A stretch of 64,000 nucleotides of DNA, taken from the NCBI GenBank assembly GCA_046299555.1, contig JBKBHS010000004.1, forward strand, positions 52,056-116,055, read 5' to 3'. The translations under genes were made by a program, and so were the position numbers. Positions 41,368-42,242 of the stretch are shown here, piece by piece. Under the pieces are notes generated by a model. The model searched no databases. It had not been told where the DNA came from and saw nothing but the letters and a program-made list of their open reading frames with translations. This DNA comes from Bacteroidia bacterium (GTDB lineage: Bacteria; Bacteroidota; Bacteroidia; JACCXN01). Numbering within the stretch: position 1 is the first letter of the stretch; every line of letters begins with the position of its first letter.

Positions 41368-41442
41368 GGGAGCATAGCTCAGCTGGTTCAGAGCACCTGC
41401 CTTACAAGCAGGGGGTCACAGGTTCGAATCCTGTTGCTCCCA
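41368..41442 (+). tRNA. tRNA-Val (anticodon UAC)
   Basis: GGGAGCA/TGCTCCC acceptor, GCTC/GAGC D stem, CCTGC-CTTACAA-GCAGG anticodon arm, ACAGG-TTCGAAT-CCTGT T arm; CCA not encoded. Confidence 0.97.
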
Positions 41443-41444
41443 CT

Positions 41445-41471
41445 AAACCTCGCAAATTGCGAGGTTTTTTT
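41445..41471 (+). terminator. Intrinsic terminator between tRNA-Val and GIY-YIG copy 1
   Basis: AAACCTCGCA-aat-TGCGAGG-T7. Confidence 0.85.
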
Positions 41472-41476
41472 ATTGT

Positions 41477-41728
41477 ATGTCGTATATAGTTTACATATTA
41501 TATTCTTCGTTAAAAGATAAGTATTACATAGGCTATACATCTGATGAAATAGATGAGCGAATTAGGAAACATAATACCAATCATAAAGGATTTACGGGAG
41601 GAGCAGGCGATTGGGAGTTAAAATATTCTGAAGTTTTAACTACGAAGGAAGAAGCTAAAAAGAGAGAGATTCAAATAAAGAAATGGAAAAGTAGAAAATT
41701 AATTGAGCTACTCATTTCAAAGAGTTAG
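41477..41728 (+). CDS. Stand-alone GIY-YIG nuclease, copy 1
   Basis: 83 aa; YIVYILYS...[24 protein letters not shown] keep the family Tyr/Arg/Glu positions. Confidence 0.9.
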
Positions 41729-41816
41729 CAGATTAGGTTCAGAGCATCCCGACTAAAAGTCGGGAGGGGCACAGAGCTTGTTCCGATAAATCGGAATTCG
41801 AATCCTGTTGCTCCCA
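41719..41816 (+). ncRNA. tRNA-Val-derived pseudo-tRNA with two inserted hairpins, copy 1
   Basis: TAGC...GGTTCAGAGCA (D region), TCCCGACT-aaa-AGTCGGGA in place of the anticodon arm, CACAG + AGCTTG-TTCCGA-taaa-TCGGAA + TTCGAATCCTGTTGCTCCCA. Confidence 0.7.
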
Positions 41817-41818
41817 CT

Positions 41819-41845
41819 AAACCTCGCAAATTGCGAGGTTTTTTT
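41819..41845 (+). terminator. Intrinsic terminator, second copy
   Basis: Identical to 41445-41471. Confidence 0.85.
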
Positions 41846-41850
41846 ATTGT

Positions 41851-42102
41851 ATGTCGTATATAGTTTACATATTATATTCTACGTTAAAAGATAAATATTA
41901 CATAGGCTATACATCTGATGAAATAGATGAGCGAATTAGGAAACATAATACCAATCATAAAGGATTTACGGGAGGAGCAGGCGATTGGGAGTTAAAATAT
42001 TCTGAAGTTTTAAATACGAAGGAAGAAGCTAAAAAGAGGGAGATTCAAATAAAGAAATGGAAAAGTAGAAAATTAATTGAGCTACTCATTTCAAAGAGTT
42101 AG
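41851..42102 (+). CDS. Stand-alone GIY-YIG nuclease, copy 2
   Basis: 4 nt and 2 aa differences (S11T, T55N) from copy 1. Confidence 0.9.
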   Translation: MSYIVYILYSTLKDKYYIGYTSDEIDERIRKHNTNHKGFTGGAGDWELKYSEVLNTKEEAKKREIQIKKWKSRKLIELLISKS

Positions 42103-42190
42103 CAGATTAGGTTCAAAGCATCCCGACTAAAAGTCGGGAGGGTCACAGAGCTTGTTCCGATAAATCGGAATTCGAATCCTGTTGCTCCCA
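42093..42190 (+). ncRNA. tRNA-Val-derived pseudo-tRNA, copy 2
   Basis: Same as 41719-41816 except CAAAGCA for CAGAGCA and GGGTCACAG for GGGGCACAG. Confidence 0.7.
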
Positions 42191-42204
42191 CATCTAATAA
42201 AAAC

Positions 42205-42242
42205 AAAAGGGTTACACAAAATACATAGTGTAACCCTTTTTT
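42205..42242 (+). terminator. 13-bp stem terminator closing the tRNA/GIY-YIG array
   Basis: AAAAGGGTTACAC-10 nt-GTGTAACCCTTTT(TT). Confidence 0.8.

Follow-up and report, generated by a model that had tools for sequence, protein, structure and literature searches.

The window analysed here, a 64,000-nucleotide (nt) stretch of contig JBKBHS010000004.1 from a Bacteroidia bacterium, carries two tandem 374-bp units on the 3′ side of an intact tRNA-Val(UAC) gene. Each unit contains a terminator, a gene for an 83-residue GIY-YIG nuclease and a disabled copy of the same tRNA. Related cassettes lie behind the same tRNA in the genomes of hundreds of species across the Bacteroidota, some of them as tandem arrays; copy number at the orthologous site varies between close relatives, and RNA runs from the tRNA into the nuclease gene. 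We read the cassette as a selfish, homing-type element of the tRNA-Val(UAC) 3′ side throughout the phylum, duplicated here in place by homologous recombination, and give this reading a probability of roughly 0.5. We place it with a kind already known, the tRNA-linked, free-standing GIY-YIG endonuclease cassettes that amplify in the manner of SegB, and do not for now regard it as categorically new.

The locus is organized as follows, in window coordinates.

41342–41349, plus strand: putative promoter box TATATTTG, some 19 nt upstream of the tRNA
41368–41443, plus strand: intact tRNA-Val(UAC) (ARAGORN call TAC; Rfam tRNA, 75.9 bits; cloverleaf fold)
41423–41443, plus strand: core copy 1 (T-loop, 3′ T-stem and 3′ acceptor strand), within the real tRNA
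41445–41474, plus strand: unit 1 terminator hairpin AAACCTCGCAAATTGCGAGGTTT and T-run, leaky (an RNA contig runs through it), ending 3 nt before the ATG
41477–41728, plus strand: unit 1 GIY-YIG gene, 83 aa (open reading frame (ORF) list, Pfam)
41726–41817, plus strand: unit 1 disabled tRNA-Val copy (about positions 8–76, 92 nt)
41747–41765, plus strand: hairpin 1, TCCCGA-CTAAAAG-TCGGGA, 19 nt, replacing the anticodon arm; the family signature
41781–41796, plus strand: hairpin 2, TTCCGAT-AA-ATCGGAA (TTCCGATAAATCGGAA), between the 5′ T-stem and the T-loop
41797–41817, plus strand: core copy 2, inside the unit 1 tRNA copy
41819–41848, plus strand: unit 2 terminator hairpin and T-run
41851–42102, plus strand: unit 2 GIY-YIG gene, 83 aa (ORF list, unit comparison)
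42100–42191, plus strand: unit 2 disabled tRNA-Val copy, with hairpin 1 at 42121–42139 and hairpin 2 at 42155–42170
42171–42191, plus strand: core copy 3, inside the unit 2 tRNA copy
42205–42240, plus strand: distal terminator hairpin in unique DNA, −17.4 kcal/mol

The 21-nt core TTCGAATCCTGTTGCTCCCAC, described in the initial annotation of this DNA as 20 bp long, begins at 41423, 41797 and 42171, a spacing of exactly 374 bp. The two units (41423–41796 and 41797–42170) differ at the six positions which that annotation had counted: 41507 T/A, 41521 G/A, 41640 C/A, 41665 A/G, 41742 G/A and 41769 G/T (unit 1/unit 2). Within the gene the changes replace two residues of the unit 1 protein (S11T and T55N) and are otherwise synonymous at two positions. 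Hairpin folds, ORFs and Pfam agree with the earlier description of each interval as a terminator, an intact 83-residue GIY-YIG gene and a tRNA-like piece. The terminator hairpins at 41445–41467 and 41819–41841 have a folding energy of −13.8 kcal/mol and a z-score of −5.3 each, and after the last core the sequence returns, as described, to unique DNA with its own terminator. The absence of a nearby recombinase is likewise borne out: none lies within 8 kb on either side, where no ORF has an integrase or transposase domain and the neighbours are housekeeping genes (folC, a conserved hypothetical gene, hpt, adk, obg, prfA, pyrF and others). The direct repeat of the tRNA 3′ end at the unit ends (the 21-bp core, three times) and the intact tRNA-Val are traits of integrative elements that target tRNA genes. 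The initial annotation had called the unit a minimal selfish element with a nuclease as its only gene; the GIY-YIG gene is indeed its sole ORF, and the element is probably selfish.

Read against the real tRNA-Val, the tRNA-like piece is a copy from about position 8 to the 3′ end. It is nearly the whole adjacent tRNA with its anticodon arm replaced, and not the tRNA-like 5′ half that had been proposed to act as an attP. The stop codon TAG of the nuclease gene forms positions U8-A9-G10 of the copy that follows, and a diverged D-arm comes next. Hairpin 1 stands in place of the anticodon arm and is followed by the variable loop and the 5′ T-stem, then by a 22-nt insertion that holds AGCTTG (41775–41780) and hairpin 2. 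The T-loop, 3′ T-stem and acceptor strand end the copy and constitute the 21-bp core. The core is this short here because hairpin 2 (41781–41796) interrupts the copy beside the T-loop; most relatives have a match to the tRNA of 31–35 nt, extending from the variable loop through the 3′ end, and a further match in the D-arm. The T-loop core that had been put forward as an attachment site is therefore a local accident. Neither ARAGORN nor Rfam calls a tRNA in the tRNA-like piece of either unit, and an Rfam E-value scan of them gave no family.

The signature hairpin has the form TCCCGA-N4-10-TCGGGA, with a loop free in both sequence and length (4–10 nt). Among 64 distinct copies of hairpin 1, 51 have exactly the TCCCGA/TCGGGA stem, and in six the outer pair is altered on both sides so that it still pairs (TCCCGC/GCGGGA or TCCCGG/CCGGGA). 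Its loops resemble decayed Val anticodon loops (CTTACAG, TTTACAA, TTTATAA), even beside tRNA-Met. About ten independent loci have a second hairpin of like form, inserted within the T-loop or beside it at a point that varies, and its variant CCGATAAATCGG is common to the window and locus L038. The hairpin is nearly confined to cassette loci, with 15 matches in 287 kb of flanking sequence, about ten of them in upstream tRNA copies. At nine loci a hairpin-bearing 5′ part of the tRNA, spanning positions 1 to about 55 and ending at or near the T-loop, is repeated one to three times, with no gene, between the promoter and the real tRNA. Such tRNA-Val 5′ repeats with the TCCCGA hairpin lie at L009:2225–2390, L012:2130–2376, L014:2250–2393, L018:2218–2388, L068:2214–2384 and L080:2265–2339; the window has no hairpin-bearing copies upstream of its tRNA. 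The C-terminal extension ‘GSEHPDL’ of some homologues is a translated D-arm and hairpin stem. Elsewhere in the window, positions 4714–4733 read ATCCCGACATTTGTCGGGAT followed by a T-run and resemble the family hairpin (CCCGA...TCGGG match); this candidate was rejected as an ordinary terminator after a gene, the likeness being probably coincidental.

A scan of one genome per species confirmed at least 562 relatives, and the best 80 loci of these at least 562 were analysed. Homologues at E ≤ 1e-5 number 810, nearly all of 80–95 aa; where they carry names, these are of Bacteroidota type, such as ‘GIY-YIG nuclease family protein’ or ‘putative endonuclease’. In 52 of the 80 loci, tRNA-Val(TAC) lies upstream of the first nuclease gene on the same strand, at a median distance of 36 nt; by a rough estimate, about one random gene in 1000 has a same-strand tRNA that near. 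The enrichment of homologues behind tRNA genes, which the initial annotation had suggested looking for, is thus strong. Ten other loci reach the contig end less than 130 nt upstream, seven have only a 3′ half of tRNA-Val, and two have the upstream tRNA masked by N. The remainder comprise a real tRNA-Lys (L030), a tRNA-Met (L031), an ARAGORN ‘tRNA-Lys’ that is in truth a disabled copy (L057) and six other contexts. The cassette occupies the same tRNA in five or more orders. Most of the nuclease genes are followed by a copy of the neighbouring tRNA. Exact identity of 17–35 nt between the copy and the 3′ end of the adjacent tRNA was found in 28 of 54 loci tested, and the type of copy follows the neighbouring tRNA: Val-like with 17–35 nt beside tRNA-Val, Lys-like with 28 nt beside the tRNA-Lys of L030, where the repeat includes the terminator too, and Met-like in the D-arm and 3′ end with 21 nt beside the tRNA-Met of L031. 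The literature searched contains no description of small, tRNA-Val-linked GIY-YIG genes accompanied by tRNA copies with a substituted hairpin, and the family appears to be undescribed there.

Tandem arrays of 2 to at least 6 units occur in 18 of the 80 loci, with periods of 271–549 bp, mostly 334–387. One contig of Mucilaginibacter terrigena ends in three identical units, and a separate contig of 1,989 bp consists wholly of further units; one Mucilaginibacter genome holds at least nine units in all. In a 99-row protein tree, copies from the same array are always mutual nearest relatives, and there is some clustering by host taxon. One contig (L018 and L023) has a near-identical solo nuclease gene 3.9 kb from a three-unit array. 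The solo copy has only relic tRNA pieces on either side and is dispersed, away from any intact tRNA.

The 83-residue protein matches the Pfam GIY-YIG family (PF01541) over residues 3–73 (E = 3.9e-15; 56.4 bits against a cutoff of 22.6), with Y6 and Y17 as the motif tyrosines. Across 20 homologues, 27 columns are invariant, including Y6, Y17, G19, R28, H32, N33 and E64. An AlphaFold2 model (pLDDT 91) has a three-stranded sheet with helices, a bare catalytic domain plus one C-terminal helix. The best match in sequence searches is Protein Data Bank entry 1ZG2 (UPF0213 protein BH0048; E = 4e-7); Foldseek ranks 1–11 are 1zg2, Slx1 entries and 1ywl, and the catalytic domains of I-TevI and UvrC are more distant. 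The protein is thus a member of the UPF0213/SLX1-type branch of GIY-YIG proteins. Slx1 nucleases act on branched DNA. Judged from the Pfam span and the model, the 83-residue protein lacks the site-specific DNA-binding domain expected of a homing endonuclease. No NCBIfam model names it; PADLOC returned only a sub-threshold match to UzuA (E = 0.0056, 25 residues) and PHROGs none.

The orthologous site, defined by the order hypothetical gene, tRNA-Val, hpt, adk and obg, can be followed through a series of relatives. The window has two units, as does the population in hot-spring run X4, whose contigs are near-identical to it. There the unit-to-unit junction is present in a cyclic contig of 404 nt (374 + 30) at 73.8× depth against 47.8× in the flanks, a ratio of 1.54; two copies with three collapsed variant bubbles would give 75.6× (about 1.58×). 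Sludge run X1 (L001, 99.9% nucleotide identity) has one unit at a depth of 27.1 against 27.2 in the flank, and this unit is a clean chimera, the 5′ part of unit 1 joined to the 3′ part of unit 2, which is exactly the product of one unequal crossover. Near-identical run X7 branches at the core and has roughly one copy. Locus L002 (93% nucleotide identity, Obg 99% at the amino-acid level) has one unit in which hairpin 1 has decayed and the gene is intact.

In the next relative, represented by L083 and L093 (Obg 94%), two contigs abut inside the tRNA and no nuclease gene is present. About 55 nt past the tRNA terminator, L093:88–127 reads GCAGGGCGGTCA-TCCCGAACCTTCGGGA-TTGCTAC, a probable relic of a tRNA-Val 3′ half whose T-arm was replaced by the signature hairpin TCCCGAACCTTCGGGA; 7 of 300 shuffles aligned equally well or better, and the place of the hairpin is that of the T-arm. 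Locus L092 (Obg 91.5%) has a clean empty site with a 479-bp intergenic region, where a search for a relic gave an alignment no better than shuffles. In more distant relatives with orthologues of the upstream gene, synteny is lost, and runs X12, X15, X19 and X20, at 80% likeness, gave only the tRNAs of other organisms at thin cover. One site thus exists with no copy, a probable relic, one copy and two copies, a presence/absence polymorphism characteristic of homing endonuclease genes; the empty-site and other-copy alleles that the initial annotation had proposed seeking are among these states. As in SegB-type amplification, the 3′ end of the gene is joined to tRNA-like sequence and copy number differs, one in X1 against two in X4. 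A selfish endonuclease gene would be expected to pass through just such a life cycle, from intact and amplified to decayed and lost.

The contigs of four sludge metatranscriptomes include RNA of the upstream gene, the tRNA and the cassette. One RNA contig is continuous over 41390–41799, from inside the tRNA through the terminator and the ORF to the tRNA-like piece, and cassette RNA depth is 15–45% of that of the upstream gene. The RNA contigs do not cover about 42117–42440, which argues against DNA contamination. Because the terminator and gene leave no room for a promoter of its own, the nuclease gene is evidently expressed by leaky-terminator read-through from the tRNA promoter. The presumed start of this transcript is the box TATATTTG, a putative promoter element that fits the Bacteroidota −7 motif TAnnTTTG. 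In a sigma-70-type scan, one match (41319–41346) abuts TATATTTG and another (41333–41360) spans it, and a box TAT(C/A)TTTGCACTCCC also precedes tRNA-Val in relatives.

Four relatives in which tRNA-Val is reduced to its 3′ half have a tyrosine integrase gene (Arm-DNA-bind_5 + SAM_5 + Phage_integrase) directly upstream.

L021:1028–2269, minus strand: tyrosine integrase gene
L054:1051–2370, minus strand: tyrosine integrase gene
L067:927–2135, minus strand: tyrosine integrase gene
L076:691–1929, minus strand: tyrosine integrase gene

The position of these integrases beside a tRNA-Val half indicates that tRNA-Val(UAC) is also an attachment site for integrase islands. The tRNA-Val halves start at the anticodon loop, where such islands cross over, leaving the GIY-YIG array on the displaced tRNA half.

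We infer that the cassette enters the tRNA gene by homology-dependent, homing-like repair. The tRNA-derived sequences on its two sides would serve as portable homology arms, and when an empty tRNA-Val gene is broken or recombines with the cassette, homologous repair could copy the cassette in. The outcome would be a working tRNA upstream and a disabled copy downstream, with no need of an integrase or a circle. Arrays would then grow and shrink by unequal homologous recombination between units, and nuclease breaks near the T-loop may stimulate this process, by analogy with SegB of phage T6. The T-loop region is a candidate break site: the upstream copies end there and the second hairpins are inserted there. 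The hairpins may shorten the uninterrupted homology (from about 33 to 21 bp here), sparing the last copy deletion or re-cutting, or they may be a structure recognized by a nuclease that has no DNA-binding domain.

Several points weigh against the selfish, homing-type reading. Every characterized homing endonuclease has, to our knowledge, a DNA-binding domain, and the 83-residue protein has none. The functional tRNA survives insertion, so that any target within it would persist, which is atypical for homing. Between the window and L002, pN/pS is about 0.3 (11–13 changes) against 0.02–0.04 for hpt and adk, which indicates that the protein is constrained, though weakly; the constraint is moderate at best. 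Synonymous divergence of the cassette is 0.105 against 0.21–0.24 in the flanks, a difference that hints at exchange at a later time but comprises five changes only and was not used as evidence. The intact-to-lost series is also compatible with vertical descent and loss, and the L093 relic shows long residence in the clade, which fits the same course. With only 83 columns, the protein tree is too poorly resolved for host congruence or horizontal transfer to be read from it. Viral contigs gave three weak matches (32–48% identity, two of them near a contig end) and no obvious vector. Copy-number calls come from Logan contig topology and mean k-mer depth, not from raw or long reads, and nuclease activity, target site and transfer are all predictions from sequence.

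Among the other explanations, one would make the nuclease a resident host gene, vertically inherited since early Bacteroidota and SLX1-like in function (for example, processing branched DNA at a heavily transcribed locus), with the tRNA copies and arrays as by-products of unequal crossing-over and gene conversion and absence as loss. Its presence at the same tRNA in five or more orders, the 27 invariant columns and the partial clustering by host taxon all fit this account, as do the L093 relic, pointing to ancestral presence and loss, and the X1 chimera as an unequal crossing-over product. Set against these are close relatives (L092, L093) that have neither the gene nor a replacement, identical arrays of at least nine units in one Mucilaginibacter genome for which a need for gene dosage is hard to imagine, copies beside tRNA-Lys and tRNA-Met that carry remnants of the corresponding tRNA, and the dispersed solo copy of L018/L023. 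Constraint about ten times weaker than on flanking genes, expression that needs terminator read-through and invariant hairpins left unexplained by a host function point the same way, and we regard a resident gene as unlikely, though a serious contender. At the other extreme, the assembler could have duplicated a single unit. Short-read assemblies do mishandle such repeats and the contigs of many relatives break at the cassette; the six differences between the units, the junction at 1.54× depth in the independent DNA run X4 and arrays in other genomes, including an isolate genome, nevertheless establish the tandem as real, and an artefact, which the initial annotation had named as a way for its proposal to fail, has next to no probability. 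That annotation had proposed a 374-bp minicircle with the pseudo-tRNA as attP; in the version weighed here, the circle integrates by site-specific crossover in the 21-bp core (attB) twice in succession. Direct repeats of the tRNA 3′ end at the unit boundaries, the restored tRNA and the single pseudo-tRNA of one circularized unit agree with such a scheme, and the 404-nt cyclic contigs of X4, X9 and X11 are compatible with it. A tandem repeat yields cyclic contigs equally well, however, and these were rejected as evidence of a circle, because k-mer contigs cannot separate the two; moreover, the one-copy population of X1 has no circle junction. GIY-YIG enzymes are DNases, not recombinases, and no recombinase lies in the unit or within 8 kb. 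Across the family the identity block is variable (17–35 nt) and resumes in the D-arm, the 21-bp edge coming from the hairpin insertion, and true integrase islands at this tRNA cross over in the anticodon loop, without taking the cassette with them. Homologous recombination accounts for the layout, and a circle is very improbable.

The hairpins themselves suggest a further alternative, in which a folded DNA hairpin, or extruded tRNA-gene stem-loops, would replace the missing DNA-binding domain and make the cassette a structure-guided mobile system. In such a system the nuclease would cut stem-loops of the tRNA gene, and repair would add hairpins and duplicate tRNA segments; we think this rather improbable. 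A related version, similarly doubtful in our view, treats the hairpin as the mobile entity or recognition handle, with an SLX1-like nuclease that would cut extruded hairpins or stem-loops of the tRNA gene and seed duplications and templated hairpin insertions. An invariant stem with a free loop and compensatory changes, like hairpins at varying T-arm positions in about ten lineages, replacement of the anticodon arm in copies on either side of the real tRNA (the gene-less upstream ones included) and the kinship with Slx1, whose substrates are branched, would all be expected of it. That the hairpin is so rare in the 287 kb of flanks (15 matches, about ten of them in upstream tRNA copies) speaks against transposition, and local template switching or gene conversion could also copy a hairpin. 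Alternatively, the cassette might work at the RNA level, its hairpin-tagged tRNA-like RNAs acting as decoys, regulators or an antitoxin in a layout like that of type III toxin–antitoxin systems. The cassette and tRNA-like piece are transcribed, a terminator separates the RNA gene from the nuclease gene, and in some relatives hairpin-bearing 5′ pieces of the tRNA are repeated in tandem ahead of the terminator; but the fold is of the GIY-YIG DNase type, PADLOC and PHROGs gave no meaningful match and the cassette does not qualify as a type III toxin–antitoxin system, whose toxin is an endoribonuclease of a known family held in check by its own processed repeat RNA. The window also has no upstream repeats, the gene of L002 is intact beside a decayed hairpin 1, and the tRNA copies have no 5′ acceptor strand, which together leave the RNA-level account a slim chance.

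The closest precedent for the cassette would be, by analogy, SegB of phages T4 and T6, a free-standing GIY-YIG homing endonuclease encoded in a tRNA gene cluster (PMC2330249; PMC13096335). T6 SegB cuts within tRNA genes, with the preferred motif RAWTSGAAC, and SegB catalysis together with the phage recombinase is needed for reversible tandem amplification of a 718-bp tRNA-Tyr+segB unit (PMC13096335). The amplification junction joins the 3′ end of segB to the 5′ end of the tRNA; SegB has a C-terminal part beyond its catalytic domain, and a 28-aa truncated form lost its toxicity (PMC13096335). The two systems share a GIY-YIG gene directly beside a tRNA and the geometry of the junction, the stop codon of the cassette ORF forming tRNA positions 8–10; by our own comparison, RAWTSGAAC also resembles the T-loop box TTCGAA. 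They differ in that segB belongs to phage genomes and amplifies a functional tRNA, whereas the cassette is chromosomal, encodes 83 aa of the SLX1/UPF0213 branch and repeats tRNA copies disabled by the signature hairpin.

Other known systems share parts of the arrangement. Tyrosine-integrase islands and prophages in tRNA genes likewise lie between direct repeats of the tRNA 3′ end and restore the tRNA; the cassette differs in having no integrase, a repeat of variable length and a downstream copy that reaches into the D-arm, and the islands at tRNA-Val, with their anticodon-loop crossover, are separate from it. UPF0213/YhbQ-type proteins (1ZG2, BH0048; 1YWL, EF2693) and the SLX1 domain have the same size and fold and consist of the catalytic domain only, but we know of no tRNA linkage, hairpin signature or tandem arrays for UPF0213/YhbQ-type proteins. 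Mobile endonuclease ORFs of fungal mitochondria, such as the Allomyces atp6 insertion, reportedly bring a replacement gene end with them. As in the cassette, a GIY-YIG ORF then lies at the 3′ part of a conserved gene that stays functional, with the displaced or duplicated end downstream; these cases involve organellar protein genes, with neither hairpin substitution nor tandem arrays. The tRNA-Pro pseudogene repeats of Photobacterium phosphoreum and tRNA-linked repeats of Escherichia coli (a term that PMC8144298 uses) are said to consist of tandem partial tRNAs with terminators. Such repeats, which most likely arose by unequal crossing-over, resemble the cassette in placing partial tRNA copies and terminators in tandem after a real tRNA and differ in having no gene and no conserved substituted hairpin.

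If the selfish, homing-type reading is correct, hardly any smaller autonomous selfish DNA than the cassette (about 350 bp with one 83-residue protein) is known from bacterial chromosomes, and its portable homology is that of a universally conserved tRNA gene, which it leaves unharmed. It would extend the phage result on GIY-YIG-driven, tRNA-linked tandem amplification to cellular genomes and explain many assembly breaks and odd pseudo-tRNAs at tRNA-Val loci of Bacteroidota. The cassette occurs throughout a whole phylum under no annotation other than ‘GIY-YIG nuclease family protein’. It raises the question of how a nuclease without a DNA-binding domain finds its site, for which the invariant hairpin is the obvious candidate; were the structure-guided account true, the cassette would represent a hitherto unrecognized class of mobile DNA in bacteria, one that reshapes tRNA loci. 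Natural zero-copy, relic, one-copy and two-copy alleles are already available in public data, together with transcripts, which makes the locus a good entry point for such work.

Downstream of the cassette, the RNA contigs of all four metatranscriptomes begin at about 42444–42487, likely the transcription start of hpt. The first ATG, at 42485, would give a 180-residue hypoxanthine phosphoribosyltransferase, as in relatives, against the 188-residue ORF that starts with TTG at 42461.

Many contigs of relatives end at the cassette, as a repeat would lead one to expect, and it is a systematic cause of assembly breaks. Logan contigs break at one point inside tRNA-Val (…CAAGCAGGGG), at the ends of L083 and L084 and the starts of L001 and L093; this is where the real tRNA and the disabled copies, or the tRNA-Val genes of other organisms, converge in the assembly graph. 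Typical cassettes are also present in metagenome-assembled genomes named Caulobacter, Limnohabitans, Burkholderiales and Bifidobacteriaceae (L034, L035, L037 and L081), a placement that probably reflects binning contamination rather than transfer across phyla.

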